A stretch of DNA of 64,000 nucleotides from the NCBI GenBank assembly GCA_964430735.1, contig CAYSFB010000002.1, forward strand, positions 7,390-71,389, given 5' to 3'. The notes under the pieces were generated by a model, which did no database searches, had not been told where the DNA came from, and worked only from the letters and a program-made list of their open reading frames with translations. Of the stretch, positions 1,045 to 50,025 are shown piece by piece; position 1 is the first letter of the stretch, and each line of letters opens with the position of its first letter. Origin of the DNA: an uncultured Planctomycetia bacterium. GTDB lineage: Bacteria; Omnitrophota; Gorgyraeia; 2-02-FULL-51-18; JAGOUK01. Made by a program: the position numbers and the translations under genes.

Positions 1045-2252
1045 GAGTGTTTGAGCTGGTGTCCCATTTTTTTCCGCTTCGTCGCGAGGTACTTGGCGTT
1101 GTGCGGGTTGGGTTTCATTTCGAGCGGTTCGCGGCCGGTGACTTCTAGGCCGTAGCCGCTCAAGCCCACGATCTTCTTGGGATTGTTGGTGAGCAGGCGG
1201 ATCTTTTTGATGCCGAGGTCGGCGAGGATCTGCGCGCCGACGCCGTACTGGCGCAGGTCGGGGCCGAAGCCGAGCGCGAGGTTGGCCTGAACGGTGTCCA
1301 TTCCCCCGTCCTGGAGCGCGTAGGTCTTGAGCTTGTTGAGGAGGCCGATGCCGCGGCCTTCCTGACGCATGTAAAGAACGACGCCGCAGGGCTCTTCCGA
1401 GATCCGCTTCATCGCCGCGTCGAGCTGCGGGCCGCAGTCGCAGCGCATCGAGCCCAGCACGTCGCCGGTGAGGCATTCGGAATGCACGCGGACCAGCACT
1501 TCCTTGTGCTTCTCGGGTTCGCCTTTGACGAGCGCGATGTGCAGGTCCTTGTCGACGGTCGACTCGTACGCGATGAGCTTGAATGTGCCGTAAGGGTTGG
1601 TGATCTGGGTGCGGACCGCGGCGCAGACCAGGTTCTCGGTCTTGCGGCGGTGCTGGATGAGGTCGCGGATCGTGCAGATCTTGAGTTTGTGCTTCTTGGC
1701 GAACTTGCGCAGGTCGTTCAGGCGCGCCATCGTGCCGTCCGGGTTCATGATCTCGCAGATGACGCCGACCGGGCGGCAGCCGGCGAGACGCGCGATATCG
1801 ACGGCAGCTTCGGTGTGGCCGGCGCGGACGAGCACGCCGCCCTCTTTGGCCCGCAGCGGAAACACGTGCCCCGGCTTCACGAAGTCGGACGCGTGGGACT
1901 TGGGATTGGCGAGCAGATGAAAAGTATGCGCCCGGTCCTGCGCCGAAATACCGGTCGAGATGCCGCGCTTGGCGTCGATCGAAACGGTCCAGGCGGTCTT
2001 GAACGTGTCGCCGGATTGACCGACCATCGGATGAATGTCGAGCTCTTCCAGACGCTTGGAGTCCATCGGCGCACAGAGGATGCCGCGGCCGTGCAGGGCC
2101 ATAAAATTGATTTTTTCGGGCGTGGCGAATTCAGCCGCCATCACGAGGTCGCCCTCGTTTTCGCGGTCTTCATCGTCCATGACGATGACCATTTTGCCCT
2201 GCCGGATGTCCTTCAGGATGTCGGGGATCGAATTCAGTTTCATAAGGGTCAA
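1041..2252 (-). CDS. ribBA: Bifunctional 3,4-dihydroxy-2-butanone-4-phosphate synthase / GTP cyclohydrolase II
   Basis: 403 aa. The N-terminal half is DHBP synthase ([12 protein letters not shown]..., [16 protein letters not shown]). The C-terminal half is GTP cyclohydrolase II ([10 protein letters not shown]..., CDCGPQL..., [11 protein letters not shown]). Confidence 0.9.
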
Positions 2253-3043
2253 TAGTATACCTTAAGGAGGGCGAGGCCGTGCGGGGCGGCGGTGCGGCCG
2301 GCCTGGAGGCGGTCCTTGGCCTTGAGGAGGCGCCGGACGTCGGAGGCGGGGCGGCGGCCCTTCCCCACTTCGACCAAAACGCCCATCATGATCCGGATCT
2401 GATGCCGCAGGAAGCTCTTGCCGACGATGTCGCAGACGATACGGTCGCCCGAGCGGCGGATCGCGAACCGGGTGATCGTCCGAACCCGGTCTTCCGCGTC
2501 GTCCGTGAGCGCCGAAAACGACGTGAAGTCGTGGCGGCCGACGAAGGATTGAGCGGCTTCGCGCATCGCGTCGACGTCGAGGTCCGGATGGACCCAAAGC
2601 ACCGTGTCGACGTCGAAGACGGGCTTCGCGCGGCTCGCATGGATCTCGTACCGGTAGTGCTTGGCCTTGGAACCGAACCGGGCGTTGAAGCCGGGCGGCG
2701 CAAAACGGAGGTCGCGGACCGCGACGTCGTCCGGCAGATGGAAGTTGAGCGCTTCTTTGAGCTTGAACAGCGTGAGATTCTTGGAAGGAAAAAGCTCGAA
2801 CTGGACGACTTGTCCCTTGGCGTGGACGCCCGCGTCGGTGCGGGACGCGGCGGTGAGCTTGGGCTCCTGGCCGGACGCTTTTTTGAGCGCCGCCTCAAAA
2901 ACCTGCTGGACCGTCCGCTCCCCCTGCTGCTGCGTCTGCCACCCGGAAAACTTTTTCCCGTGGTAGGCCAGCACCGCCCGGTAGGACCGGGCGGCCGCAG
3001 GTTTATTTTTTCCCGATGAGCTTTTCGGCGATTTGGACTGCAT
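2249..3043 (-). CDS. truA: tRNA pseudouridine synthase A (TruA)
   Basis: TruA-like core ([18 protein letters not shown]..., RTDAGVHA..., HQIRIMMG). The Lys/Ser-rich N-terminus overlaps the asd stop by 40 nt, so the true start may be an alternative codon further downstream. Confidence 0.75.
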
Positions 3044-4055
3044 TGAGCGCCGCGCCCTTGCGGATCTGGTCGCCCGACACGAAAAGACCGATGGTCTTTT
3101 TCGAGAACAGGTCCTGGCGGATGCGGCCGACGAGCACGTCGTCCTGATGCGCCGAATCCACCGGCATCGGGAAATAATTGGCGCCGACCTTGTCGACGAC
3201 CTTCACGCCCGGGGCCTTCGCGAGTACTTTGCGCGCCTGATCGGGCGTGATCGCCTTGTCGAACTTGGCGTAGATTGCCTCGGAATGCGCGCGCATCACC
3301 GGGACGCGGACGCAGGTCACCTGGACCTTGATGTCCTTGTCGCCGAGGATCTTGTGCGTTTCCTTGACCATCTTCATCTCTTCCTCGTTGTACCCTTCCG
3401 GGCCGACGCTGGAATTGTGGCTGAAGACGTTAAACGCGATCTGGTGCTTGAAGATCTTCTTCGTCGGCTTCTTGCCGGCGAGGATTTCGCCCGCCTGCAC
3501 GCGCAGCTCTTCCATCGCCTGCGCACCCGCGCCCGAAGCCGCCTGATACGTCGCGACGTTGAAGCGCTTGAGGCCCGCCGCCTTGTGCAAAGGATACAGC
3601 GCCATGAGAGCGACAATGGTCGAGCAGTTGGGATTGGCGATGATGCGCTTCTTGCCGCTGTTCTTGATTTCGGAGGCGTTGATCTCCGGGATCACGAGCG
3701 GAACTTCGGGGTCCATCCGGAACGCCGAGGTGTTGTCGATCATCACCGCGCCGGCCTTGAGCACCGCCGAGGCGAATTGCTTCGAAATGGAACCGCCCGC
3801 CGAGGCAAGGACGATGTCCACACCCTTGAACGAATCCTGCGTGAGCAGCTGCACCGTGTGGGTCTTGCCGCCAAAGCGGATCTTGCGGCCCGCCGAGCGC
3901 TCGGACGCGAGGAGCTTGATGCTGGCGATCGGGAACTTGCGCTCCTCGAGGATCTGCATCATCTCCACGCCGACGGCGCCGGTGGCGCCCATGATCGCGA
4001 CGTTGTACGCGGGCTTTTTCTTGAAGCGCAGGACTTCTGTCTCTGACTTCGCCAT
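3003..4055 (-). CDS. asd: Aspartate-semialdehyde dehydrogenase
   Basis: The C-terminal 350 aa of the 423-aa ORF match Asd (NVAIMGATGAVG..., NPNCSTI..., SGAG motif). The ATG at 4055 lies 1 nt upstream of the leuB stop. The N-terminal 73-aa extension in the track is low-complexity, out of homology, and rejected. Confidence 0.85.
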   Translation of the reverse strand: MAKSETEVLRFKKKPAYNVAIMGATGAVGVEMMQILEERKFPIASIKLLASERSAGRKIRFGGKTHTVQLLTQDSFKGVDIVLASAGGSISKQFASAVLKAGAVMIDNTSAFRMDPEVPLVIPEINASEIKNSGKKRIIANPNCSTIVALMALYPLHKAAGLKRFNVATYQAASGAGAQAMEELRVQAGEILAGKKPTKKIFKHQIAFNVFSHNSSVGPEGYNEEEMKMVKETHKILGDKDIKVQVTCVRVPVMRAHSEAIYAKFDKAITPDQARKVLAKAPGVKVVDKVGANYFPMPVDSAHQDDVLVGRIRQDLFSKKTIGLFVSGDQIRKGAALNAVQIAEKLIGKK

Positions 4056-4056
4056 T

Positions 4057-5127
4057 TTAGAGTCCTTTGACGACGAGGTCGCCGACTTCGCTGGTGGAAT
4101 AGCCCATCTTGCCGGCGCTCTGGCTCTTGAGCTGGGTGCAGACGTGCATGACGGATTTTTCGATCGCCTGGGCCGAGACGGTTTCGCCGACTTCTTCGAG
4201 CAGCATGCCGCCCGCCGCGATCGCGGCCAGCGGGTTGATGACGCCGAGACCCGTGTACTTGGGTGCGGAACCACCGATGGGTTCGAACATCGACACGCTC
4301 TCGGGGTGGATGTTGCCGCCCGCCGCGATGCCCATGCCGCCCTGGATCATGGCGCCCAGGTCGGTGATGATGTCACCGAACATGTTGTCGGTCACGATGA
4401 CGTCAAACCATTCGGGGTTCTTCACCATCCACATGCAGGTGGCGTCCACGTGCGCGTAGTCGGTGGTGACGTCCGGATATTCTTTGGCGACTTCCTGGAA
4501 CACGCGCCACCAGAGGTCATGCGCGTAGGTCAGAACGTTGGTCTTGGCGCAGAGCGTGAGCTTCTTACGCTTGTTGCGCTTGCGCGTAAATTCGAACGCG
4601 TAGCGGATGCAGCGCTCGACGCCCTTGCGGGTGTTGCGAGAGACCTGCAGCGCGACTTCCTGGGGCGTGCCCTTGTCGATGAACTGGCCTTCGCCGACGT
4701 AGAGGCCTTCGGTGTTTTCGCGGACGACGACGAAGTCGATGTCCTTGGGGCCCTTGTCCTTGAGCGGCGTATCGACGCCGGGATACAGGCGGACCGGGCG
4801 CAGGTTGATGTACTGGTCGAGGCCGAAGCGGGTCTTGAGCAGGATGCCGCGCTCGAGAATGCCGGGGGCGACGTCGGGGTGGCCGATCGCGCCGAGCAGG
4901 ATCGCGTCATACTTCTTCAGGTCCTGAACTTCCTGATCGGAAATGGTCTGCTTGGTCTTGAGATAGCGCTCGCCGCCGTAGTCGAGCATCGTGTAGTTGA
5001 GCTTGAATCCGTTTTTCTTGGCCGAGGCGTTCATCACCTTGATGGCTTCGCGCACGACTTCCGGGCCGGTGCCGTCGCCGCCGATGACGGCGATGTTGTA
5101 ATTGCGGGAGGTGTTCTTGGGTTTCAT
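4057..5127 (-). CDS. leuB: 3-isopropylmalate dehydrogenase family enzyme (LeuB-like; tartrate/isocitrate DH not excluded)
   Basis: 356 aa with signatures of the beta-decarboxylating dehydrogenase family (GGDGTGPEV, NLRPV, VRENTEGLYVG, NMFGDIITDL). Confidence 0.7.
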   Translation of the reverse strand: MKPKNTSRNYNIAVIGGDGTGPEVVREAIKVMNASAKKNGFKLNYTMLDYGGERYLKTKQTISDQEVQDLKKYDAILLGAIGHPDVAPGILERGILLKTRFGLDQYINLRPVRLYPGVDTPLKDKGPKDIDFVVVRENTEGLYVGEGQFIDKGTPQEVALQVSRNTRKGVERCIRYAFEFTRKRNKRKKLTLCAKTNVLTYAHDLWWRVFQEVAKEYPDVTTDYAHVDATCMWMVKNPEWFDVIVTDNMFGDIITDLGAMIQGGMGIAAGGNIHPESVSMFEPIGGSAPKYTGLGVINPLAAIAAGGMLLEEVGETVSAQAIEKSVMHVCTQLKSQSAGKMGYSTSEVGDLVVKGL

Positions 5128-6056: not shown

Positions 6057-6455
6057 TTAGCGGATAAAGCGGACCTTGATCTGGCCGCGGACGGACTCAA
6101 AGTCCCGGTCGGCGGTCAGGAGTTCTCCGCCGCTAAATTGGGCGAGCGCGGCGGCGAAGCCGTCGGCATAAGCTAGTTTTCCTGAGGATTTAAATTCAGC
6201 GGCAGACTCCGAAGATTCTTTGTCGGCGGGTACGATGTCGATGGGAAACGAGGCGGTTGCCTGCAGGATCAAGCGGGCTTTTTCAGCCCCCATGTCACGC
6301 TCCATGACATAAGACACCTCGCCCCAATTGACGGCGGATATCAGAAGCGTGTCATCTTCAGTATAAGCAAGATCCAAGGCCTTGACGACTTCACCGTATC
6401 CGGGTTCCCGGCGCAAATAGGCCAATAAGGCCGACGCGTCCAGGACCCGCTTCAT
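6057..6455 (-). CDS. vapC: PIN-domain toxin (VapC-like)
   Basis: 132 aa with the PIN-fold pattern (N-terminal D in VLDASALLAYL, conserved acidic residues, C-terminal LLTADRDF). It overlaps the upstream antitoxin gene by 4 nt. Confidence 0.7.
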   Translation of the reverse strand: MKRVLDASALLAYLRREPGYGEVVKALDLAYTEDDTLLISAVNWGEVSYVMERDMGAEKARLILQATASFPIDIVPADKESSESAAEFKSSGKLAYADGFAAALAQFSGGELLTADRDFESVRGQIKVRFIR

Positions 6456-6712
6456 ACTCCGAACCTTCTGAGCTTGGCATCTTCTCGGCGCTTCTCACGG
6501 GCTTTTTCCTCAAACAGAATCTTGGTCAAGCTGCCCTTGCCGGCCGCCATTCCCGCCATCCGCTCGAAGTAGCCGCGAGTCAGCGGCTGGATCACGATCT
6601 GCCCCCCTTGCTCAAAAACGTTGAGCCGTGTCCCTGCACCGATATTCAGATGCTTGCGGATCGCGGCCGGAATTACGATCTGGCCTTTACTGGTGATCAC
6701 GGTGGTTGTCAT
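6452..6712 (-). CDS. vapB: AbrB/MazE-type (swapped-hairpin) antitoxin, VapB-like
   Basis: 86 aa. The N-terminus (VITSKGQIVIPAAIRKHLNIGAGTRLNVFEQGGQIVIQPL) is a typical SpoVT/AbrB DNA-binding fold. It is 4-nt overlap-coupled to the PIN gene. Confidence 0.65.
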   Translation of the reverse strand: MTTTVITSKGQIVIPAAIRKHLNIGAGTRLNVFEQGGQIVIQPLTRGYFERMAGMAAGKGSLTKILFEEKAREKRREDAKLRRFGV

Positions 6713-6793: not shown

Positions 6794-9700
6794 TTAGGCG
6801 GATATTTCAGAGAGGCGGGCGCCGCGGCGGAAGAAGTCGAGCATTTGGCTGACGGAAAGGCCCGCCGGAAGCGCCTTGAAGGCGTAGGTCCGGCGTTCGG
6901 CTACGGACGCGGTTCCGGCGACGATCCGTCCGGCGACGTCCGCTGGCACGTGAACGACCCGGGCTAGGGCGGCCCAGGCCTCTAGAAGCGGCTGGGGCAA
7001 ATGAGCAGGATCCTCTGCCCGCGCGATCGCGGCCGCCAAAAGAACCGCTGCGCGGATCGCCGGGGTCTCGCTTTCGCGCAAGCGCTGTTCGTAGAGGTTG
7101 TTGCCTTTGAAGCGGACCGTCACGTCGTCGGACAGATAGCCATGCGCCGCGCCCTTAGGCGCCTGAATGGAAAAAAGTTCCTTGCCGATTTTTTTGGCCG
7201 CCTCGATCATTTCCGGATCCAATGCGGGATTTTCGTCCAACTCAAAAAACAGTTGCGTGTCCGCACGGCGAAGTACGATCAGCTGCCTCACCCGGTATTC
7301 GACCGAAGCGATCGCCGCCGCTCTCCCCCTGGGAGTGCTCAAGAGGCCTGGATCCGCACCGATCGTCACCCGGATCGCCACGTCCTTGTCGGCCGATATC
7401 CCGGCCGATTCCGCAATCTTTTGAATCACAAAGTTCAGGAGGTTTGTTTCCGATTTTTCAGCAAAATCAACCGCATCCTGTGAGGTTTTCTTAGACTCGC
7501 GGGATGAACGGTCGTCGGCCGGGATTGGACTTAACGCTTCCCGGACGTCGCCAACAAGAAGTGTCCGACCTTCAATCTGACCCGTCACATACCACTCCGC
7601 CGCACCAGGCCCCGCCAGACTCACCGAACCTTCTAAATTGGATCCGCGCGCAATCACCGAATAGTCCTCGATCATTCGACGACGATTCTCTTCAGAAAGG
7701 TCCGACCAACCGACAGAACCCATCTGATTGAATCCTGCTGTCGATGATGTCGCCAGCCGCGCGCCTTTGTCAGAGCCTGATTCGGACAATGGCGCTGCAG
7801 GATTAAAAATAGCTTTTAACCGGTCCAAATATTCCGCGCGGATACTTCCCTGCGCCGCAAGCTCCAGAGCTTCAAAATCTTCCGCACGGTCGAGCTCCGA
7901 TTCGATTTGGTCGGCGTTTTTTCTGTCCCCGAGATACTCTGCGATCACCTTGGCCGCGGCCTCCAGCTGATGCCGCGTGACATCTGCGCGAATCCCTTCC
8001 AAATAAACGACCAACGGCGTCTTGTCTCTCACGAACAAGCCATTTTTGCGGTCCCCTTCGAACACGAAGGCGTTGCCCATAAAATCGTCCCGCTCCGCCA
8101 CCATGACCAAGGCATGCTCCGAAATGCTCGCAAGCAGCTTGATCAACAATTCCCCGGGACGCGTGTGGAAACCCCGTTTGCCGGTGCGAAGAATTGCGGG
8201 AGCGGCCGCCTTGGCGGTCTCCGGGAGCAACCGGGCCCGCAACTGAGCAAAATTGCCTTCAACATCCCCGCGGTCCGATGCCAGTTTATTGGCGTTGGTC
8301 AACCGGATCAAACCCCGATCCAAATCCGCGCGGTTGATCCCCTCCAGTTTCAGCACCAGGTAATCAAGCAGCAATCTAAATTCGGCTTCGTCGTCACCGG
8401 CCCGATGATCCAAAAACTTTTGATAATCCCCGAAGTACTGAAGATTCGCCACGCGATCGCTTTTCTCGTACCGGGCCATCTCGGACAACGCGTTGAACTC
8501 ATCGTCGGTCAACGGGCTTGCCGAAAGCACGAACTCTGACTCCGGCGCGTCAAGCATCGCTTCTTCTTCGCGCATGCCGGCAATCACGTCGGCAAATTCC
8601 CTAGGAGAATCGTTGGCGATGTGCTCGATGCCCGTCGCGATGGCCAGCGCCATATCGGCTCTGTCCCGGATGCCGTAAGCGTAGGTCTTAAGACCCGATT
8701 TCCGGATTTGATCCACCGTCGGAGGATCCTTCCAATCGCTCAGGTGCAGGTCCAAGCCTTCGATGCCGTGTTCCTTCGCGTAACGGATGTGTTGATCGAT
8801 GGACCGGATCGGATAAAGCTTTTCTTCCGCGTCAAGTGTGTCCGGCGGGTAAACGGAGCCGTCCTGGGGCATCGTGATCAAGGCCGTTTGGATGCGCGGA
8901 GCGAGCCGCTTCAATTCGGCGAGATACTCCGGAATGAACGAAATGACGATCGCCTGGTCCAAAAAGTCCATGCGGGTAAGCGTCTCGATCAACTTCGGAA
9001 CGATGCCGTCCCCTGACTTGATCTCGATCTGCAGCGGAACGTTCGCCTGCTTGGCGACGTCGATCACCTCTTCAAGCGTCGGAATCGTGCCGCTGGGCAT
9101 CCACTTCTCATGAAGGCTGATCGACTGGAGCTCGGCTAGCGTCAGATCCTCGGCTTTGTCTGACCGCTTTCCCTGCGTCATGCGGTGCAGGTCCAGGTCA
9201 TGGAACACAAATATTTTTCCGTCCGCGCTCAGCCGGATATCGCACTCCAGCTCTTCCGCGCCGGCGGCGACCGCCGACTTGAACGCCGGCACTGTGTTTT
9301 CCACCTGGCCGTCACCCCGGCCCCGATGCCCTACGTTTCGCGAAGTCAACGCCAACCGCGCACCCTGGGCTTTGGATTGATCGTTTTGGGTATCGGGGAG
9401 CAGGATGTCCCTGAGATAATTCTGCCGGGTGATGAGATTCTCGATTTCGCCGTTCGGGCTTTGGAAAAATCTCTCGACCGCGGGCCGGACGCGGGCGACG
9501 GCCGCCGGGTCGTTCCGCAGGATGGAAACCAGTTTTAATTCGAGCTTGTCCCCTTTTTCGATATTGATCGACAGTATTTGAATGGGATCGTCGGCCTCAG
9601 CAGTTCTGCCATTTTTGAGATTTTTTACCCAAATCTGAACCTGATGGTCCTGCATGATCCAATTGGCCAAATGAGCGCTCCGCTGCGAAGGATGGAGATG

Positions 9701-12700
9701 CACGCCCCCCTTATTGGCGTGTGTGACTTGGAACGTTTCGGAGAATTCCGCCAGGCGGGCGGCGGAAGGATCTGACGGAACCGCAGCCGGGACAGGACGG
9801 ACGGCATAGGACTTGAGCACATTGCCGTCTTTCAGGTTCAGCTGATGCAGGCGCCTCGTGTGTTCGAGTCTTTGCAAGCGCCCCTGCGCATCGGCTTCCA
9901 CTTCGATGGAAGCATACACCGTGCGGCGAAGGTCCGCGTCGTAATATCTGCTTAATTCGTACCACCGGTTCGGCGCGCCAAGCGCGAAGATCGCCCGAAA
10001 AGGGTCGTCTCCTCCTTTGGCCTGAAAATTCTTCGCACCCACCGCATTGGAGCGGGTATAGAGCCCCTCAAAGGGCGCCGGGTGAGCGGGGCTTTCGGGT
10101 TCGGCCGAACGAATATGCGCGGCGAGGAGCGGCTTGATCTTCGCGGCATCTTCCGCAACCACTGCCTGACGGCGGAATGCATCCGGATCGATCCTTCTGG
10201 GCGTCACCCGCGTCCGGTCCCTGCCTCCGAGCTCTGCCGTAAAGACCCGCAGATCCAGGTGACCATCACGGATTTGCGGATCGCCCGTCGAGTCGAGGGC
10301 GATGAAAGTGAAGATAGGCCGTCCACGGGCATCGTCCCACGTGCGCCGCATCCAAAAGGCTTGACCCGGCTCGAAGCCCAGGACGAACAGCGCCGGCCGC
10401 CTGTTTTTGACGGTGATGTTCCCCCGGTCGTTCGCGGCATAATAGACCTCCATGTCCCGATGCGTGCCGGAAGCGCCCAAATCTTCGCTGTCGAACTGCG
10501 CCGTCAATTCGGGATAGGCGGCCTCCCACCCGAACCGGTGGCGCAGCGGCGTCGGATGGATCACGGTCTTGATCAGATTCTCGGCGTCCAGGTCCGGGCG
10601 CCCGGAAGCGTTTCTTTTGACCTCGAAGGTCCTCGAGAACGTTTGTCCGGTGTCGGCGTCCACGTAGGAAAGGATGAATTCATAGGCAAAAGTTGTCGGC
10701 TGGTACACACGCCTGAACAGGACCTCGGCGGGCCGTTTGGTCTGGAGGTCGAAAATGAGCTTCCTGACATTTCCCCGGGCGTCCGTGAATGCAAAAGAGA
10801 TCCGGCCCGACCGGCTCGACATCAGCCTCGCCGTCAAATCACCCCACTCCGGGGAATCGATTCGGCCGCTCTTAAACTGAGCGACGATGGCCTCCCTCGC
10901 CTGCTTGAGGCTCAACGGCGCATCAACGCCCTTCACCGGGCGACGGGTTGACTCTTGGTGCATTTGGACGAGAATTTTTTGGGCGTCCTGGCCAAAGGCT
11001 GTCCGCGGCTCAAAGCGGAGCGTTGCTTTTTGCTGGATGTCTGCCCGTTTCAGAAGAGCCCCCGCTTCGAATTGCCTGCCCTCGGCTGACAATCGGCGGG
11101 CTGCCTTTATGCTGTCGTCGATGGAGACCGCTTTTTCAACGAATCCGTTGCGCCGCGCCGTTGCCCACACTTCGGCATACGGCGCTTGTTCCGCCAGGAG
11201 CGCCGGCAGACGGGACAATTCGCTCAGCACCAGATCCCCCGCGCCCAGATCGCACAGCTCCAGCAAATGCTCCGCCGTGATCGCCGTGCGGCTTTGATAG
11301 GAAGCTGCCTGATGAATGCCGTCGATCCGCTGGATCGTTTTCCGCGCTTCCGACGGGTCGAGCTCGTCGGTGGACGCCAACTCGAGCGCCTCGTCCAGTA
11401 TCTGGAGAACATTGTTTTTTCGGCGAGCCCCTGCCTTTTCCTGCCAATTTGAGATCAGGTTGTGGAAGCGCCTCCTTTCCATACCCGTCAAAATATCAGG
11501 CATGGCCGCCAGCATACCGAGCAGATGGAGGCCCGCGTCCGCAAGTCGGTCTGTTTGCAGGATCGACGCAAATTCCCTCACTCTCTCTTCAAATTCCGCC
11601 AGCCGGGCACCGGCGGGTTGAGGCTCCGCGAAGACGGTCACGACGTCCCAGCCGCTTCGACGCAGCAAATCCGCGAATCGCGTGGAGGGGTAATTGTTGG
11701 CCAGGTCGGAAAAGCGATCAGGCAGCGCTTCAGATCCGGCCGCCCTCAGGTCAATCGGAGCCTGTGCCGTGAACCCGGTCTCCGCCAGAATCCGCAGGGC
11801 CAGCGGAACGCTGTCGATCTTGCCGGGCCCCGGCCGGCGCACGAGCTCGTCGATCGACTGAACAACCGCCTCACCCGCCTTGGGCCGCTGGATCACAAGA
11901 ACAAGCCTTCCCTCCGGCTTGAGAATCCGGCGCGCTTCGCGCATCATGCCGGGCAGCACCGACTCAAGCGTACCCGGACTTGGCATGTTGATCGTGACCA
12001 CATCGACCGAGCCGCTTCCAAGACCGGTCGATTCGGCGCCTTGCAGGACCAACCGGCCCGGGAGATCTTCCAAAGCAACCGGTGTCATCGGCGGAAGATC
12101 GTAACTGATGAATCGTGCGTTCTTCAGCCAGGCGCCCGCGTCGACCTTATTCGCGAATTCGGCATCCAGGCCCCCCATATCCACACCCTTCACAACACCG
12201 GATAACTGCTCAAAATCGCGGATGATCCGCTGATTTCGTTCCGCCACGGCATCCTGGTCATCGGTCAAGACGGTCTCGTTGCTGTCTTGTGTCGACGCCA
12301 GCCGTGCGCCTTCGGCAATGAGCCGGCCGGTGGCGCTGGTTTGGGTTGCGTCTCCGGCGGTCGCCTGCAACTCAAAGAAATGAACGCCCGGCGCGAGCGG
12401 CCGCAAACGAATCGCCCACCGGGAAACGTCATCCGGCAAACCGGCCTGATCGTCGATCCGGCGCATCTCAAAGGTCTGTCCGGCTGTGTCCGCTTCGTTC
12501 CATACACGGACCGCAACCCGCTCAACGGACCGGCGGGTGTAAACCTCTACATCGAACGGCTCGGCGGATTCGGATCCGTCTGCCGGAATCCGGCGGCGCT
12601 GGACGACGCCGCTTTGGACATCGGGATTGGCACGCAGCAGAAGCCGGTCCGCGGGAACCGCGAAGACTTGATTCCTCGCGGCGACGAGATCCTTCAGCAA

Positions 12701-15700
12701 GCGCACGGCGGATTCCGCCGCAACCGTGGACGCCTCGCCGCGGGCCGCGGCCGTCAGCTCCTGCACGGTCGAGGGCAGGCGCTTGCGCCACTGTCCGGTC
12801 GACACGCCTGGAACGTTGAACCGGTGTTCCTCGCCAAGGCCGAAAACGTCGAACCAAGTCGGGATCGCCAGAAGCGCTTTGGACAAAAACACCTGCTCAA
12901 GCAGTTTTTGGTGCACCTGCGGAGTGAGGGACGCGCGGTGCGCGGCGCGCTCGGACTCGGGCAGGCCCGGAAGCAGCTGATCGAGGACGCGGTTTTTTTC
13001 ATCGTCGGACATTTCCTTTTCCCAGCGGGTCCGGATGTTGGACGCGTCGTGCAGACCGAATGTAGCCATCGAGTTCGGGGTGTGGCGCGAGGCGTGGTAG
13101 GCGCTTTCGGGACTCAAGCCCCACATGACAGGAAAATAATTGTATCCGGCGAGCTGGACGACGAAGTCCTGAATCTCCTGCGGCACGGTGCCGAGCGTTT
13201 CAAATATGACCGTAGTCCCCTTTGCCTGAGCCAGCGCCAAGAAGTCAGAAAGAATCGACGGCATGGTGGGTTTGAAGTACGACAGTCGCACGCTGTCTCC
13301 CGTTTGCGGGCCTTCGCCGTTGAACAAATACTCTTCGAAGAAGCCGGCATCCCCCGCCCCGGCGCTCGGCGTGAGCCGCAAATAATCCCACACGGGCTTT
13401 TCCAAATGAACCTTGGCTTCGACGACCTCGCTGCGCCGGTCCCAATGAGACCCTTCCGGCACCGGCAGTCCATACTGATCCCGCGGAGTCTCCCTTGCGA
13501 TCGTGACCGCAGCATCCGGTGTCAGCCCGCCGTCGGGCCCAAACAGGTATCGGACCGCATCTTCCGGCAGACCGAACGCCGCCGGATCGAGGCCGCGGAG
13601 ACGCTCATAGAGAACCTTGCGCGCCTGCTCCACGGCTTCCGCCCGGATGCGCCCGGCGTCCTGCGGCGAACCGGCGGCCTGCGAGACGGCCGTTCCTCGA
13701 ATCCGGCGGAACGCATCGTCCAAACCCAGCCGTCCCAGCGTCATCTGCGCGGCAACGTCTTCCGTGAACAGATAGTGACGGAAAAATCCGAGTACGTGGT
13801 CCAGCCGGATATACGTCGCGCGGTTCTGATGAAACGCGAACAGCCGCTTCAGGTAATCGGCGGTGGCGGGGTTCGACCAGTCGTACGGATAAAACTGCCA
13901 GTACTGGCCCGCCGGATACGCGGGCTCCGCGGGCACCCCCTGGGTGACCAGGCGCCGGTAGCCGTTTTCCTTGCGAAGCCCGAAGACGGTGTCCTTATGG
14001 ATCCAGACGTCGGCCCCGTCGCGGGCGAACGGAATGTCGACGGCAATCTCCGAACCGTTGGCGCGCGCATGACCCTTCATTGTTTGGAACTGCCGATCCG
14101 CAACGAATTGCACGAACATGTAGAAGTCGAGCCGGTCTCTCAGACGGGCCTTGGCCGACGCGATCGCGCCGGGCTCACGGTCGCGAAGCCCCGTTTCCCA
14201 GGTCCGCCAATCCCAGCCGTTCATGGGCTTGCGCTCCAGATTTTCTTCCTTGAGAAGCACGTAGAGCATGTGGTCTTCCAGCCAGTCGGCATTGGATTCG
14301 AGGAAGCTGCGGTGCGCGAGACCCAAAGCGGTTCCGTCCGCCGCGGGCGCGCTGCGGTAGGCCCGCCACAGGAGCTCCAGCGCTTCCATTTTGAGACCGA
14401 TCACGGCCATATGGTCGATCTCCGAAGCTTCCCGCAGGGCGCGGATGCGGCCAGCGTTGCGGCTCAAGAAATCGCGGACAGGCGCCAGGTCCACCGCCGC
14501 CGACTCGTCGCGAACCATCCTCTCCATGTCGTCGATCAGCATCGGCACGCTGATGTAACGCGGATCGATCGCGCGCGAACTGTTCTCGGCATACGGCGAG
14601 TCAAACGCGCCCGACCAGCTCAGAGGCAAGTGCTGCTGCACCTTGAGCCCGAGGTCCCGGTACAGATCCGATGCGGCCATCGCGCTCTCAAAGTCGCCGA
14701 CCCCCCAGTCGCCCCGGCCCGTCACCGGATCATGGGACCTCTGGAAGTGGAAAGGAAAAAACGCCCCGCTCACAGATTCCATCCACGCAACCGGCGCCAC
14801 AAATTCCTTCGAAACGGGCTCTTCCGCAAGCGCGACATCCACCGCGAGCCTGGCGGCTTGCGTTTCGGCGGGGAGCTTGTCACGGAAAAACCTTGCGGTG
14901 CGCGCAAAAGCGCGGCTCTTTCTATTTCCAAAAAAGTAATGCCGGCCGGATGGATCATAGTAGACGGGTCCGCTGTCCTCGCCGATCAATTCGCGCAGAC
15001 GCAGTCCGTCGGAATGCGACACGTCGCTGTCCGCGCCGCCCTGGATGTACATGAAGTCCGAAAAATTCATATCCCGGTCCAGCGAGGACACCGAAATACT
15101 GAAACCCGCCGCGATGTCGCGGATCTTTTCGAGGTCATTCTCTCCAAATACGTACCCGAGAAATTCCCGGTGCCGGCCGATCGCCCGGCGGTCCAAAAAG
15201 GTCTTTTCCAGAGGAGGGTTCATCGACACGACGGCAAACAGCCGCCCGCGCAACTCGGTGCTGAGATACGCCCTCAGCGCCGCATTACCCCCGAAGCTAA
15301 ATCCAAAAAGACCCGCGGAACCGAATGAATAATCGGGGTTTGTCTCCAGGTAATTCAGGCACGCGGCCGTGAATTCATTGAGCTCCGCCGCGGCCTTGAT
15401 CGGCTCATGATTGCGGCCATGTCCCGGCAGATCGGGCCGCAGTACCGCGAACCCGCGCCGCACCAGCATGTGCTCGAGCTCATCAAAGTAGGGCTGCTGC
15501 CCTCCGTTGGTGAGTCCCGCATAGATGATGATGACGGGCATTGCCTTCCGCCTAAGTTTGCCGCTGGTTGGTATCGTTAACTGGGCCGGAATGGGCTGGT
15601 GTCCAGGCCTCGGGATGCGGATATCCAAGAGAACCGGCGCGCTGGAGGCGCCGTTGTATCCGGCGCGATGGGCCTGGGAATAAATCGCGTCGAACTTGGA

Positions 15701-18700
15701 TCGAAGCCTCTCAAAATCGGGGTTGACGCCGCCGTCCGGCCGCCGCGGTACCTGGAATCCCATTGCGATATACCAGTAGGCTGCCCGCTCCCTCACATCC
15801 TGCGCTGCGTCGCCCATCCCTTCCCAATATTCAAGCCAGGTGCTGCGCCAGGGAAAAATAACGCCCCGAGCATCCCGCCATGGCATCCGGCGCAAAATCC
15901 GGCGCATCGCCGTGTCGGCTGCGGCTTCGGTCGAGGATGCTGCTGCAAAATCCCGCAGCTTGATTCCGTCGTTCAGAGCGAGAACCATCTGCTTGAGATC
16001 GCGGTTCATGTCGGCAAAGATCTCGCTCATCATCCCGGCCAGCCGAGCGCCCTTCGAGCCCCGATATTCCCTGTCGGTGCGCACGCGGATGCTGCGCGGC
16101 GCGGTGACGCTCAGCTTTAATTTTTCGTCCGTAAAGTCGATGGCTTTGATCACGATTTCTTTTCCGTTGATCCGCAGCTCAGACTGGCGCAGCAAATCCT
16201 CCAGCGTCGGACGATGAGGCGCGACCTTCATGTGCACCAACTTTCCGCTTGGCTTAGCGTCGGGGTTCTGGCGCGCAAAGCGCCGGTATTCGATGGACGG
16301 AATGGCGCGGCTCGATGGCTCGGTGGGTCCGTCAACCGGAATGCGCATGTCTGCAGAAACAACGAGATCAGCCTTGAGATTCAGCTGATCCCAATCCACG
16401 ACATGCACCACGACCTGAGCGCCCGATCCGATGACCAGCTTCTCCCCCTCGCCGAGGGTAAGCATCCGATGGCCCTTCCCGTCCGCACTCAAAGGCTTCT
16501 TCTCCCCGCCCGCCAACCGCGCGCCGTCGGCCTCAAACAACGCGCGGACATCCGCGCCGTGGATGCCGGCCGCTGGCAGTAAGCGCTCAAACAAAAGCAC
16601 GTACGGATCGTCCGATCGGACTCCCGCGGTCTCCCTCGAAGGCTGCATGGCGCCTTCGAGCGGGGCCCATGAATAATTCATGTGGTTCCGCCGGGTCACG
16701 ATCAGCGATTGAAAAATCAGGCCGATCAAATATTTCGCGTCATCCGACAACTCCGGCTCCGTGACCAACTCTGACTCCAGATCCATGGTCAACTTTAGAA
16801 CTTCTTCATAACGCCGGCCTAAAGTGGCCGCGATGAAGCCGTCGTTCAAGACCGAGATGTCCTGCGTCAGGTGTCCGCGAAGTTCAGAAACCATCGACCG
16901 CAAGGACGCCGCGTCAACCGGAGCCGCGTCGTCGGCCGGATCTTCCAGATAACTGACCGTCAATCCTTCCTGATCGATCGCGTCTTGAGCCATGATGTGG
17001 TGAGTGACCAATTCGCGGGATATCTTCAGATGAACGTCTTCAGTGAACATCAGATCCGCGAGGAGGTGATTGTAAGCTTCCCGGTCCGACGGGAGAACCA
17101 TCGAATCGGCTGTCATCATTTCAAAAACCATGACCATCCGCCGCATTTTTACGAGATAAAAATTCAGATCGTGAGCCAACGCCAAAAGCCTCTCGTCGCT
17201 CACGCTGCCGTTGTTCTGCCAGGCCTTCACCCTGTCTCGAAGCTCACGTCGGCGGGCCACAAAAACTCGCTTAAAAAGCGTCAAAGGATCGATCTGACGG
17301 GTCTGGATGCGTTTATAGAGCGAAGGATCTTGCGCCAGACGCTCCAAACCGATCTGTTGAAGCGTCTGGGTTGAGGTCTCCGGATTCGATTCCCGCAAGG
17401 GCCTGGTCAGGATCCGGAAGTAATGAGCGAGTCCTGCCGCCAGATCTTGCCGCTGACCAAATTCCTGTCCCGGCCAACTCTCGAGCCATGCGTCCATAGC
17501 ATCGGCAATGTTGGCGACAAGTTCTTCGCGCTCGGATGCGACAGCCTTCGTTTTGACCGTTTTAGAGTCTGCACCCGAAGGTGACTTCGGAGCGGACGCT
17601 GTCAAATATTCCCGCCACTCGGAGGCGTCCGCCATCTGGGAAGGCGCCAAGTTCACATCCAAAACACCCAATGCGACCGAAAGAGTCTCGCGCAGCGCCG
17701 GGTCTGCCGGGAACTCCATCACGCGCGGCCCTGAAGACCATGCGTCGAGCGTCGTCACATCGATCAACACATCCCCCGTCCGAAGACCCGCTGCAAGCGA
17801 ACTCACAACCGCCTGCATTTTGGCCGTGTTGTCCAGCACACGCGGTTCAACCGCCGATCGGATAGTGGCACTGAACTGCTGGTTGTAGCTTCTTCGCAAG
17901 ATAATATCGGGCAAACCCGCTTCGCGCATCCCCCTGAGCGTCAAGGTCAGATCGAGTCCGGACAGGCTCATCGACTCGATCCTGCTCTGCTCGATCAGAC
18001 TGGCAATTTCTGCGGCAATTTCGGCGTCGCCTCCGCGCTTGACCATGAATCCCAGGTCCGCGAGCGCGTCACGCTCAAACCGCGTGCCGACTTCCACGGT
18101 GGCATACAACTTTTGGTCCGGCTCCAAAGCGCTGACAGCAGGTAAAAATAGTTCTGCAATCCGGCGTTCAACCTGCGCCGCATCAGCCGCATTGCCTTCG
18201 AGACGAAACGCTTCATATCGAACCGAAGCGAGCCGCGCGGCCTGCTTGGGGCCGTTTAAAAGATGTTGTTTGATCAGTCCGATTTGCCGGTCATTCATCC
18301 AGGCGCTGACCGACGACAAGCCGTCCATGATCAGCTGGCCCCGGTAAGCCGTAACTTCCGTCGTATTGAGGTAAAAAGGCGGGACTTTTGCGAACGACCT
18401 CAGAATATCTTCAAGAAGATTGCTGCTGGAGGCGGCATCGGCACGCCATTCGCCGGCGCCGCGCAAACTCGATAGAAGCTTGTCGAGAGATGACTGGGCA
18501 GGCGGCGACTGAATGAAATCGAGGGGCATCACCCCTTCTCTCCGCATCGCAGCACGGAAGTCACCGGCGTCTAAATGGTCCAAAAGATCCTTCATCGCGC
18601 CGCGCTCGGGGTCAATCGGCAGCTCGGTCGGATCCAACGCAAATTGTGTTTGGAGAACCCATTGGGCCAATTCCCTCATGCGAGAATGATTGCCCCGACC

Positions 18701-25058: not shown

Positions 25059-26687
25059 TCACGAAAGTTCGAAGCGGGTGTATTTGCGATCGGCCGGCGG
25101 TACGTCCCAATCGATGAAGCGGTAACCGAGGCCGATGGGCGTCACGTCGACGTTTTGGAAGCGCTTATGCACCACCGGCAGCGCGTCGGCGACATAGATA
25201 AAGAGATAGGGCTTGTCCGCCGCGATCAACGCATGGATGCGGCGGCAGATCCGCGCACGCTCGTCCCGGTCAAAATTCCGCTGCGCCTCCAGGATGAGCC
25301 GGTCCACCTCGTCATTTTTGTAGCCAATGAAGTTGAATTCCCCCGGCCCCGTCTTGGACGAATGCCAGATGTCGTACGGGTCCGGGTCGCGCGAAAGCCC
25401 CCACGCCAACAGCACCATATCGAACTTCCGCGCGTCGACGACATTCTTCAGGAAGGAGCTCCACTCGATGATTTTGATCCGCATCTTCACACCCACGTCC
25501 GCGAACCGCCGCTGCAGGATCTCGGCGATCATCTGGCGCTGGACCACACCCTGGTTGGTGACGATCGTGAACTCGAACGGCTTGCCGTCCTTTTCGCGCA
25601 CACCGTCGCCGTCCGTGTCGCGCCAACCGGCCTCCTCGAGCAGCCGCCGGGCCTCCGCCGGATCAAACGGGCTCGGCTTCACGTCGGGATTATAAGCCCA
25701 CGAATCGGGGCTGAAAGGGCCCGTGACGGGCCTCCCGAGGCCCAGGAGGACCCCGTCGATGATCTCCTGCCGGTCGATGGCCATATCCAGCGCCTGCCGA
25801 ACCCGCGCGTCGGCAAACAACGGGCTCGCCAGGTTAAACGCCGCAAACGTATAACCGAAGCTCGGGTAGCGGTACTTGCCGTAGGTTTTTTTAAAAAAAT
25901 CCGAATCCGTCAGCCGCGCATACTGCAAAGGCGTCAAAGCCGTCGAGTCGATCGATTCCTGATGCAGCTCCAGAAACGTCGTCGCCGGATCGGGCACGAC
26001 CCGGATTACGATCCGGTCGATGCCCGGCCGGCCCTCGTGATAATCCGGGTTCGCGTACAATTCGACCCGGTCCCCCGATACCCAGCGTCCGAACCGGTAA
26101 GGGCCGGTCCCGACCGGCCGGCGCGCGAATTCGGTCTTCATCAGGTTTTCGTTCTCGAGCAGATGCTTGGGCACGATGGACATCCCCCAGCTCGAGAGCG
26201 CCGGGCTGTACGGCTCGTCGTAATGGACCCGGACGGTGAACGCGTCCGGCGTTTCGAGCTTCGAGACGCGCTTGAAGTCGCTGCCGTACGGCGTGGGAAG
26301 ATCGGGGTCGGTGAGCTTGGCGAAGGTAAACGCGACGTCGGCCGACGTGAACGGTCTGCCGTCATGCCAGCGCACGTCCTTGCGCAGATGAAAAACGAAG
26401 GTCCGGCCCCCGTCGAGGGTTTCCCAGGATTCGGCGAGGTCTCCCTCGAGCTCCAGCTGCGGATTGTAACGGACAAGGCCGTTGAAGATGCGTTCGGCCG
26501 CGTCGTGCGACGCCGAATCGGTCGCCAAAAACGGAATCAGGTTGGAAGGTTCGGCGCTGGACGCCGTGACGAAGGAATCCCCCGCGCACGCGGACGGGAC
26601 CGGCAGCGCAACCGCCGTCAGAAAAAGAAAAAACGCCGCGAACAGAATTCGCGGCGTTTTTTGAAGACCGGTTCGCTGCGTGCGCAA
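25059..26687 (-). CDS. oppA: ABC transporter substrate-binding protein, family 5 (OppA/DppA-like), secreted
   Basis: 542 aa. A signal peptide runs MRTQRTGLQKTPRILFAAFFLFLTAVALPVPSACAG. The family-5 SBP core is present (YRFGRWVSGDRVELYANPDYHEG..., NQGVVQRQMIAE). Confidence 0.8.
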   Translation of the reverse strand: MRTQRTGLQKTPRILFAAFFLFLTAVALPVPSACAGDSFVTASSAEPSNLIPFLATDSASHDAAERIFNGLVRYNPQLELEGDLAESWETLDGGRTFVFHLRKDVRWHDGRPFTSADVAFTFAKLTDPDLPTPYGSDFKRVSKLETPDAFTVRVHYDEPYSPALSSWGMSIVPKHLLENENLMKTEFARRPVGTGPYRFGRWVSGDRVELYANPDYHEGRPGIDRIVIRVVPDPATTFLELHQESIDSTALTPLQYARLTDSDFFKKTYGKYRYPSFGYTFAAFNLASPLFADARVRQALDMAIDRQEIIDGVLLGLGRPVTGPFSPDSWAYNPDVKPSPFDPAEARRLLEEAGWRDTDGDGVREKDGKPFEFTIVTNQGVVQRQMIAEILQRRFADVGVKMRIKIIEWSSFLKNVVDARKFDMVLLAWGLSRDPDPYDIWHSSKTGPGEFNFIGYKNDEVDRLILEAQRNFDRDERARICRRIHALIAADKPYLFIYVADALPVVHKRFQNVDVTPIGLGYRFIDWDVPPADRKYTRFELS

Positions 26688-49202: not shown

Positions 49203-49538
49203 TTATTTCTTTTTGCTTCCGCGGCTGAACTGAAGGACCGTGGCCTTGGCTTTTTCGACCTCAGCCTCGTCCTTCATGCCTTTTTTCATATAAAAAACCG
49301 ACAAATTCACATGCGCCATGAGCGACTCGGGGTCCTTTTCGGCCAGGCGCTTCATCAGATCGATCGCTTCGTCGAGACGGCCGAGCTTGCTGTAAACCAC
49401 CGCGAGGCTCTCGTACGTTTCCAGGAAGTCCGGTGCGTCGGCGAGGATTGCCTCGAGCTCTGCCGCGCACGCCTCGGGCTTCTTTTGGATCAAGAGCTCC
49501 AGCGCCGCTCCCAGGCGGCGCCGAAGTTCATCGGACAT
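49203..49538 (-). CDS. TPR-repeat protein
   Basis: 111 aa with 2-3 TPR-like helical repeats (ETYESLAVVYSKLGRLDEAIDLMKRLAEKDP). Confidence 0.5.
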   Translation of the reverse strand: MSDELRRRLGAALELLIQKKPEACAAELEAILADAPDFLETYESLAVVYSKLGRLDEAIDLMKRLAEKDPESLMAHVNLSVFYMKKGMKDEAEVEKAKATVLQFSRGSKKK

Positions 49539-50025
49539 ACGCCGCGTCGACGCTGCACGCGCCGAAGCCCGGCCGGGCGCGCATCCCCAGAACCACCAGC
49601 GCCGTCAGAACCAAATCCATCGCAAAAACACCCGGCAGCGGAATCGAGATCAGCTCGCCGAAACATCCACATTCGTCCATCGGCAGCCGGCGCACGAGCG
49701 CCTGACCGACCGCGACCAAAAAAATCCCGAACATCGCCAGGATTGCCTTGCCCGAGACACGGGTCCACAGTCCCAGCATGAAAAAAACGCCAGCGACGAG
49801 CTCAAGCCACGGAAGTGTCTGCGCCAACAATGCCGCGCGCCCGCCGCCGATCATCTGATACTGCTCGATCACGTACGCAAAATTCTGATAAGGCCCGATC
49901 AACTTCTCAAAACCGGAGACGGCGAACATGAACCCGACTCCGACACGGACGGCGGTCCAAAGGTCCGGTCGTGCCGGCGGAAGCGCGGCCGGCCGCTTCC
50001 CTTGCCTGGCGTGCTTAGTGGGCAT
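49528..50025 (-). CDS. DoxX/MauE-like integral membrane protein (redox partner of the adjacent thioredoxin-fold protein)
   Basis: 165 aa with four predicted TM helices. A Cys pair (DECGCFGEL) lies in a periplasmic loop. It overlaps the downstream DsbA-like gene by 11 nt. Confidence 0.45.
   Translation of the reverse strand: MPTKHARQGKRPAALPPARPDLWTAVRVGVGFMFAVSGFEKLIGPYQNFAYVIEQYQMIGGGRAALLAQTLPWLELVAGVFFMLGLWTRVSGKAILAMFGIFLVAVGQALVRRLPMDECGCFGELISIPLPGVFAMDLVLTALVVLGMRARPGFGACSVDAAYVR

Follow-up and report, generated by a model that had tools for sequence, protein, structure and literature searches.

The Omnitrophota are ultra-small, apparently host-dependent bacteria of the PVC (Planctomycetes, Verrucomicrobia, Chlamydiae) group, for which giant proteins are a defining trait. 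Giant open reading frames (ORFs) are a recognised feature of the phylum (Seymour et al. 2023, PMC10066038), and a class of 'multi-enzyme metabolic cluster' has been defined, with many of the giants bearing signal peptides (bioRxiv 10.64898/2026.06.07.730766). The points at which such giants are cleaved have been described as unknown, and C39 or S8 peptidase domains have been proposed for the task (West-Roberts et al. 2023, bioRxiv 10.1101/2023.11.21.568195). In the MARTX (multifunctional autoprocessing RTX) toxins, a protease domain belonging to the toxin itself frees the effectors by cutting after leucine residues in the unstructured segments between them (PMC2900308). Here, we describe g1, a gene for a giant modular protein in a 64,000-nucleotide stretch of contig CAYSFB010000002.1 from an uncultured bacterium (the window, meaning that whole stretch), together with the large family to which it belongs. 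An initial annotation had seen in g1 an unusual Sec-secreted fusion of an esterase, a GH77 4-alpha-glucanotransferase and a glycerophosphodiesterase (GDPD), forming an extracellular toolkit for surface or storage polymers of another cell. The three enzymes do lie on the chain, and within the family a fusion of this sort is the rule, not the exception. The layered reading that we favour is that of an exported polyprotein of cytoplasmic-type proteins, punctuated by a conserved pentapeptide mark and probably cut at these marks; our confidence in this reading as a whole is evenly poised.

As in the multi-enzyme giants of the Omnitrophota, many unrelated Pfam enzymes tile a very long chain with a signal peptide in g1, and families that recur in those giants (PF08241, PF02518, PF00583 and sugar-metabolism enzymes) are the cargo of g1 and of g3, a second member of its family in the window, whose relatives fall in the same phylum. 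Since the published multi-enzyme class matches this cargo, the enzyme fusion of g1 adds a new and smaller example to a known type of protein, with 4,896 amino acids (aa) against the at least 10,000 aa, or ORFs of more than 20 kb, of the catalogued giants. The fusion, once thought unusual, is how the members of a huge family, and of a class already in the literature, are commonly built. In contrast to the proposal of West-Roberts et al., g1 has no C39 or S8 peptidase domain. A text search of PMC10066038, bioRxiv 10.1101/2023.11.21.568195 and bioRxiv 10.64898/2026.06.07.730766 found neither the mark, nor the TIKI-like N-terminal domain, nor the [AS]A tail described below.

The g1 gene is real and intact, and encodes a modular giant protein (Table 1). 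It runs for 14.7 kb without a stop in sequence of 60% GC, its codon-position GC (0.65/0.44/0.70) is coding-like, and an independent protein collection holds a twin of 4,883 aa that begins at residue 14 (MPGFFSKK...) and is 99.98% identical, so that the ORF is no accident of assembly. The source is a metagenome, and the risk of misassembly is high for giant ORFs; an artefact, be it an assembly chimera or a pseudogene in decay that happens to read as a single ORF, would nevertheless have to be reconciled with these observations, with the intact catalytic residues of the GH77 and GDPD modules and with the same architecture in thousands of relatives, and the chance of it is very small. Among all window genes, the third-position GC of the three giant genes (0.68–0.72) lies below that of the surrounding housekeeping genes (0.77–0.88).

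All three enzymes lie on the single chain in the order originally given, and positions 8590–15541, corresponding to residues ~1982–4299, hold all of them. The strongest Pfam match is Glyco_hydro_77 (PF02446) at aa 2257–2904 (E 8e-70, 236–242 bits where the cut-off is 25, covering profile positions 7–460 of 465), followed by GDPD (PF03009) at aa 4053–4294 (E 4e-29, 103–108 bits against 23.6, profile positions 1–242 of 244). The alpha/beta-hydrolase (aa 1946–2101) is a weak and marginal match, though it exceeds the gathering scores, spanning the N-terminal half of the profiles only (FrsA-like, 27–32 bits against 22; Abhydrolase_1, 27–31 against 25.8; Abhydrolase_6, 27–32 against 26.3). NCBIfam agrees with Pfam on the three families, and the full-length NCBIfam equivalog thresholds are not reached by the GH77 module (M6) because of an insertion of ~150 residues between the Asp nucleophile and the Glu acid/base.

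Catalytic positions in the GH77 module were assigned from those of the Thermus amylomaltase (D293/E340/D395). The nucleophile D2562 (IRLDHV), the acid/base E2762 (IFETLG) and the third carboxylate D2813 (GLHDAS) occur in order, and the blocks YIRLDHVLGF, VIFETLGTVP and FGLHDASNIR align with FLRLDHFRGF, IIAEDLGVIT and SGTHDNDTIR of solved amylomaltases (1tz7, 5cpq). The nucleophile is therefore intact where it had been predicted, in IRLDHV; the RDGADVW block, to which the acid/base had been assigned, is a conserved GH77 block of another kind, the acid/base being E2762. In the GDPD module, H4053-R4054, the metal ligands E4080 and D4082, H4095 and E4154-I-K are identical to 2pz0 when aligned, as the annotation had anticipated. 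The predicted esterase serine stood as well: S2063 in the GFSFGG nucleophile elbow aligns with the GxSxG of 2jbw, at a place where the Vibrio FrsA has Arg. The remainder of that triad is less firm, Asp and His being placed by position only, presumably at D2152 and H2182. Judged from these alignments, the active sites of the 4-alpha-glucanotransferase and the glycerophosphodiesterase are intact and the nucleophile of the esterase is present. Catalytic residues and domain order in the modules match those of the free enzymes MalQ/DPE1 (GH77) and GlpQ/UgpQ (GDPD), with the difference that in g1 the modules are embedded in a giant chain and that GH77 carries the ~150-aa insertion and a C-terminal extension.

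Both of these additions are common to P0151, a free-standing GH77 protein of 883 aa on a JGI contig (L083:145-2796, plus strand) with its own start and stop and no signal peptide, which is the closest non-giant relative of the GH77 segment. Residues 2216–3062 of g1 align with residues 17–858 of P0151 at 38% identity, insertion and C-terminal extension included, and the aligned stretch starts 2 residues past one pentapeptide mark and stops within the next. On sequence grounds, the GH77 module corresponds to a complete, free-standing enzyme of cytoplasmic type. P0151 reads PEGADLN where g1 has the mark AEGARLA, and its neighbour gene encodes a SLATT_2-domain protein. The GH77 module (67% identity) and the C-terminal domain of g1 recur in another family member, P0005, together with a methyltransferase module 38% identical to M7 of g1 at a different position; as the two modules stand in another order there, modules are shuffled as units. 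The GH77, GDPD and esterase modules of g1 were not found in the first ~3.8 thousand residues of 79 related loci.

Three further modules were found in a separate Pfam scan of each segment, all of them above the gathering score: the CsrA-like M4 (28.7 bits against 27), the methyltransferase M7 (22.7 against 21.2) and the HPr-like M9 (26.2 against 23). Scanned one by one in the same way, the segments M2, M3, M8 and M11 gave no Pfam match. Six distinct Pfam families thus occur on the chain, with none dominating. The M4 segment (16052–16510, minus strand; aa 1659–1811) contains two CsrA-type repeats in tandem, at aa ~1700–1801. As CsrA normally acts as a homodimer, this tandem module may be a single-chain pseudo-dimer. 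The tail that follows GDPD contains GFHTRP (aa ~4438–4443; 8165–8182, minus strand), which has the same form as the active-site signature of HPr; a second HPr-like domain at this point was considered and rejected, the motif giving no profile or PDB match and only a 16-residue BLAST match. Taken together, the CsrA-like, HPr-like, FrsA-like, amylomaltase and glycerophosphodiesterase modules point, by their sequence assignments and in our own reading, to carbon-storage and phospholipid metabolism as a possible theme of the cargo.

The family is defined by its N-terminal domain. Exhaustive HMMER searches with a two-copy profile of the domain gave 8,089 representative proteins with E<1e-3, of which 2,140 had E<1e-30, unlike word-index homology searches with the single sequence or an 18-sequence alignment, which returned zero relatives. 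In the relatives the domain is always N-terminal, and protein lengths reach 7,894 aa. A genomic locus scan limited to one genome per species found 197 loci and kept 79, the titles of which name Omnitrophota or Omnitrophica in 42 cases and 'uncultured Planctomycetia' in 33; the locus L074, whose metagenome-assembled genome (MAG) carries the latter label, is syntenic with the window. Several to many paralogues occur per genome, and the family is found almost only in Omnitrophota-type metagenome genomes of the PVC group. There is little doubt that its members share an architecture of signal peptide, TIKI-like N-terminal domain, modules separated by marks and conserved C-terminal domain. This last domain occupies the last ~100–200 residues, with ...a-A-R-[LM]-A-x-[RKQ]-A-[VI]-g-x-[AS]-A as its end, and that of g1 is common to the C-termini of P0005, P0071, P0107 and P0134. 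Among 150 relatives, 118 end in Ala and 110 in [A/S]-A, the remainder being mostly short fragments. The cargo of 13 other members (47.8 thousand residues) includes FHA, HATPase_c, PCMT, LOG-type, HD, histidine phosphatase, protein kinase, PP2C, RelA/SpoT and methyltransferase domains, while the bulk of the sequence is without assignment.

Between the modules stands the pentapeptide [G/A]-A-R-L-A or a close variant (AARMA; GARLS in the last copy), with 12 copies in g1 and 11 in g3; it is absent from g2, the third giant of the window. Allowing at most 1 mismatch, the window contains 14 in-frame copies of GGCGCGCGGCTGGC against 0.29 expected, all of them within g1 or g3. In the 150 best relatives GARLA is the top 5-mer, with 317 observed occurrences against 2.3 expected, and GARMA was observed 118 times against 0.4 expected; the median spacing is 405 aa, a usual length for a single protein, and the positions flanking the five residues are unconserved. 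Some family members use GTRLA, GSRLA or GAKLA throughout. The ten residues on either side of the mark have a hydrophobic fraction of 0.21 against 0.31 (p about 1e-38) and are enriched in polar residues. In g1 and g3 the mark lies outside every Pfam envelope: GDPD starts 8 residues and HPr 6 residues after a mark, while 5 residues separate the end of the g3 HATPase_c from the mark that follows. A minority of the family (P0008, P0013, P0014, P0046, P0070, P0078 and the locus set JBLINS01) has few or no GAR[LM]A marks; it includes eleven paralogues of a single Omnitrophota MAG of 40% GC, and it keeps the residues of the N-terminal domain and the [AS]A C-terminus. In the literature, a search for GARLA returned surnames only. 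A signal peptidase I or II site at the mark was rejected, there being no hydrophobic segment before it and no Cys; so were a sorting signal of the sortase or exosortase type, as no transmembrane segment follows, and 2A-like ribosome skipping, as the upstream context is unconserved.

The N-terminal domain shared by g1 and g3 (~450 aa) has no Pfam model, and the similarity of the two proteins, at 35% identity, is confined to their first ~450 residues. An AlphaFold2 (AF2) model built on the 18-sequence alignment, with a predicted local distance difference test score (pLDDT) of 83.7 and a predicted template modelling score of 0.79, matches the folds of ChaN, HopBA1, a TraB protein, RRSP, Bcr135/136 and EreC. 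The modelled domain thus matches the fold of the TIKI/TraB/ChaN/erythromycin-esterase superfamily, split in the model by a helical insert of ~245 residues. D103-x-H105, E133 and H444 (in G-G-Y-H) are invariant in all alignments of the domain that were made, and g1 keeps in them the [D/E]-x-H, the Glu 28 residues on and the C-terminal G-x-x-H histidine of the TIKI/TraB/PrgY/ChaN/erythromycin-esterase superfamily. It differs from that superfamily in the insert and in its lack of a significant profile match: PF01963, PF04187 and PF05139 all failed to reach significance (best, PF04187 with E 0.068 and 13.6 bits against a cut-off of 27.7, in g3 only), and no PDB chain was matched by sequence. The link to the TIKI superfamily therefore rests on the predicted fold and the residue pattern.

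Within this superfamily, the spacing in the N-terminal domain is RRSP-like, E133 following the histidine by 28 residues as in RRSP. RRSP is a site-specific endopeptidase in which E3900, H3902, E3930 and H4030 are essential for Ras cleavage, and a relative without this E/H/E/H set is inactive (PMC6254334). D103-x-H105, E133 and H444 mirror E3900-x-H3902, E3930 and H4030 by sequence pattern, not by superposed coordinates.

Export is suggested by the N-terminus of g1, which reads MPGFFSKK-ITLKATAAILLPVWLLAEAAQA, then AP, and in a heuristic view presents a positive n-region, a hydrophobic core and an A-x-A site. Of 123 complete family N-termini, 115 are likewise laid out as a cleavable Sec signal would be (positive start, hydrophobic core of 11–15 residues, A-x-A then A-P). 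The call was made by this heuristic on N-terminal layout, and the Sec secretion claimed in the initial annotation is upheld to that extent.

By analogy, the MARTX toxins are the nearest mechanistic precedent for g1. Like them, g1 is a giant chain of thousands of residues with conserved ends and a shuffled central array of modules (PMC2900308, PMC6254334), and the predicted model of the N-terminal domain shares its fold with RRSP, an effector of MARTX. Unlike MARTX, g1 has in Pfam scans neither RTX or haemolysin-type repeats nor Peptidase_C80, and nothing in it suggests type I secretion; it has instead a predicted N-terminal Sec-type signal and a strict 5-mer with Arg at P2, its targets would be prokaryotic, and its modules are separated by a conserved mark at which processing is putative. 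A resemblance to viral polyproteins is seen in the encoding of whole proteins in one frame, in a short strict peptide delimiter with unconserved flanks and in a candidate protease on the same chain, whereas g1 is a gene of a cellular chromosome, placed among housekeeping genes, with metabolic and regulatory cargo and no replication or capsid proteins.

In the polyprotein reading, the g1 chain would be exported through Sec and the mark would be the place of processing, the simplest cut falling between L/M and A, such that the giant releases individual enzymes and regulators. The processing protease would be the TIKI-like domain at the N-terminus of the chain itself, which is the sole universally conserved candidate. 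Since the cargo types need ATP, S-adenosylmethionine (SAM), acetyl-CoA or RNA, the released modules would most likely act inside another cell, be it host or prey, where those of g1 would affect the target's carbon-storage and phospholipid metabolism and not its outer surface. These steps differ in standing. Cleavage at the mark, suggested by the sequence pattern, falls a little short of an even chance, while the assignment of the N-terminal domain as the protease and the action in another cell are tentative, each of them somewhat unlikely on its own.

Several observations weigh against this reading. That the chain is exported follows from a heuristic view of its N-terminus, and its cutting is putative. 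The source organism is placed by way of relatives of this family. The mark has Arg at P2, unlike the small-Leu-small sites of MARTX. The strict mark is missing in 27 of 100 members of at least 2,000 aa, about 10 of which have no variant either, and because such members keep the residues of the N-terminal domain equally invariant, cutting at marks cannot be the sole role of that domain. The first acidic residue of its catalytic-like set is Asp, not Glu. The AARMA copies beside the domain are modelled as helices (pLDDT about 80) and not as an extended linker, and G-A-R-L-A could, on the model, begin a helix and serve in structure or docking. The C-terminal domain was modelled by AF2 with a pLDDT of 82.8, yet had no fold match, and nothing in g1 was recognised as a device for translocation, as a pore-forming repeat or as a domain for host binding.

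The extracellular toolkit of the initial annotation, in which an uncut secreted chain holds hydrolases side by side against the surface or storage polymers of another cell and the pentapeptide is a linker, accounts for the signal-peptide-like N-terminus; its three enzymes require no nucleotide cofactors, and published proposals have Omnitrophota giants digesting prey surfaces. What it ignores is the rest of the chain: the CsrA-like, HPr-like and methyltransferase modules of g1 have no obvious extracellular role, nor have the kinases, PP2C, RelA/SpoT, FHA, GNAT and HATPase domains of its relatives, which are intracellular protein types, and the GH77 module is the fused counterpart of an enzyme that occurs on its own and bears no signal peptide. 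Carbohydrate-binding, adhesin and dockerin domains were not detected in g1 by Pfam scans, and a plain linker would not hold five invariant residues across proteins of ~30% identity. We regard this toolkit as improbable. The same cytoplasmic character of the cargo, and of the free-standing GH77 homologue, would suit a membrane-tethered or cytoplasmic 'metabolon', an uncut chain serving the cell's own metabolism and regulation in which GAR[LM]A is a helix cap, a hinge or a peptide that docks onto a shared partner, which might be the helical insert of the N-terminal domain. Such a role agrees with the predicted packing of the helical AARMA copies on the N-terminal domain (pLDDT about 80), with the A-R-[LM]-A helix that is found also in the C-terminal tail and with the quarter of long members that lack the mark. 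It is opposed by an N-terminus that obeys the positive-inside rule for export and, in most members, presents an A-x-A then A-P site, by mark flanks that resemble exposed polar linkers, and by the topology prediction of the 2026 preprint, which contradicted its earlier intracellular reading of the largest multi-enzyme giant (bioRxiv 10.64898/2026.06.07.730766); we consider the metabolon unlikely.

The mark might also be mainly a matter of DNA, GGCGCGCGGCTGGC being a short recombination or assembly site that joins and shuffles gene cassettes, with the peptide as a by-product. An identical 14-mer, GGCGCGCGGCTGGC, encodes 9 of the 10 GARLA marks of g3, relatives show shuffled modules, and preferred codons are kept even at 46–47% GC. 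Across the family, however, the mark sites between them use all four codons for Gly and for Ala and all six for Arg and for Leu, in genomes of 45–66% GC, and selection must therefore act on the peptide; the alternation of L and M requires a change of the first base, and the mark is always in frame, always on the coding strand and retained where the DNA has long diverged. Nor would a DNA site account for the similar A-R-[LM]-A at the very end of the chain. As the main explanation this is highly improbable, and the DNA-level and peptide-level readings are not mutually exclusive.

Table 1. Features of g1 and other giant-associated genes in the window (coordinates in the window; aa numbering of g1 from the first TTG).
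Feature	Position	Strand	Remarks
Giant ORF g1	6794..21484	minus	4,896 codons counted from first TTG; 4,883 aa from likely start, residue 14
Signal peptide, predicted Sec, aa 14-43	21356..21445	minus	MPGFFSKK / ITLKATAAILLPVWLL / AEAAQA, then AP; heuristic reading
Family-defining N-terminal domain, aa ~74-500	19985..21265	minus	TIKI/TraB/ChaN/EreA-like predicted fold, large helical insert; D103-x-H105, E133, H444 (GGYH)
Two AARMA copies, aa 501-505 and 525-529	19898..19984	minus	directly C-terminal of N-terminal domain
M2 (aa 530-1081) and M3 (aa 1087-1653), no recognisable family	16526..19897	minus	
Mark AARLA, aa 1082	18227..18241	minus	
Mark GARLA, aa 1654	16511..16525	minus	
M4, aa 1659-1811, tandem CsrA-like	16052..16510	minus	Pfam CsrA 28.7 bits, two stretches
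Mark GARLA, aa 1812	16037..16051	minus	
M5, aa 1817-2209, FrsA-like alpha/beta-hydrolase	14858..16036	minus	nucleophile S2063 at 15296-15298
Mark AARLA, aa 2210	14843..14857	minus	
M6, aa 2215-3058, GH77 4-alpha-glucanotransferase	12311..14842	minus	~150-aa insertion, C-terminal beta-rich extension; D2562, E2762, D2813
Mark GARLA, aa 3059	12296..12310	minus	
M7, aa 3064-3291, SAM-type methyltransferase	11612..12295	minus	Methyltransf_11 22.7 bits
Mark GARLA, aa 3292	11597..11611	minus	
M8, aa 3297-3907, no recognisable family	9764..11596	minus	
Mark AARLA, aa 3908	9749..9763	minus	
M9, aa 3913-4040, HPr-like	9365..9748	minus	PTS-HPr 26.2 bits; H3929 at position of phosphorylated His15
Mark GARLA, aa 4041	9350..9364	minus	
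M10, aa 4046-4573	7766..9349	minus	GDPD aa 4053-4294, then unassigned 280-aa tail containing GFHTRP
Mark GARLA, aa 4574	7751..7765	minus	
M11, including family C-terminal domain (last ~215 aa)	6797..7750	minus	ends ...RRGARLSEISA-COOH
g3, second family member, 3,866 aa	50796..62396	minus	same N-terminal domain, 10 GARLA and 1 AARLA, ends ...AIRLAAISA
g2, third giant, 3,179 aa	30377-39916	minus	two-partner-secretion exoprotein, N-terminal two-partner secretion (TPS) domain, no GARLA
ShlB/FhaC-type TpsB transporter	41466-43235	plus	divergent from nearby g2
AbrB/SpoVT-like antitoxin candidate, 86 aa	6452-6712	minus	MTTTVITSKGQIVIPAAIRK...; 4-bp overlap with toxin
PIN-domain toxin	6057-6455	minus	
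Opp/Dpp-type peptide ABC importer, complete	21608-26687	minus	SBP_bac_5, two permeases, two ATPases; 124 bp upstream of g1 start

The second family member, g3, carries a GNAT domain at aa 639–697 and HATPase_c at aa 2499–2623. It has 2–3 internal hydrophobic segments (aa ~2705–2738 and 3803–3824), which g1 is without. A gene pair for a DsbA-like thioredoxin and a MauE/DoxX membrane protein (49528–50725, minus strand) is found 70 bp downstream of g3; such a disulfide-bond-forming pair would fit an exported, disulfide-containing product. The TPS domain, the hallmark of TpsA proteins, is absent from g1 and g3. A toxin-antitoxin pair lies directly downstream of g1 (6057–6712, minus strand), and oppD/F and asd-leuB-thiG neighbours recur around the family gene of L074. 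In the 79 loci, clustering of flanking ORFs, together with tblastn of the window neighbours, revealed no gene for a protease, a chaperone or secretion as a conserved neighbour, as would be expected of a self-contained protein. The nuo operon adjoins the family gene in 12–15 of the 79 loci (nuoA, B, CD, H, I, J and L-type; for example L009, L022, L032, L055, L067 and L075), and this recurrence is read as the synteny of one orthologue group.

For the study of the Omnitrophota, the mark offers a concrete way of splitting giant chains for annotation and structure prediction, and it turns the question of whether and where the giants are cut into a hypothesis testable by mass spectrometry, with a candidate enzyme on the same chain. 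Should other cells indeed receive the released modules, the family would offer a large stock of effectors yet to be studied. The most far-reaching version, a phylum-wide polyprotein system in which thousands of Sec-exported giants would be cut at G-A-R-[L/M]-A by their own TIKI-fold enzyme into dozens of enzymes and regulators of cytoplasmic type for delivery into host or prey, is in our estimate rather unlikely; were it true, it would represent a new effector-delivery platform, an analogue of MARTX built from different parts, and the mark would be the key to parsing the giants of the Omnitrophota.

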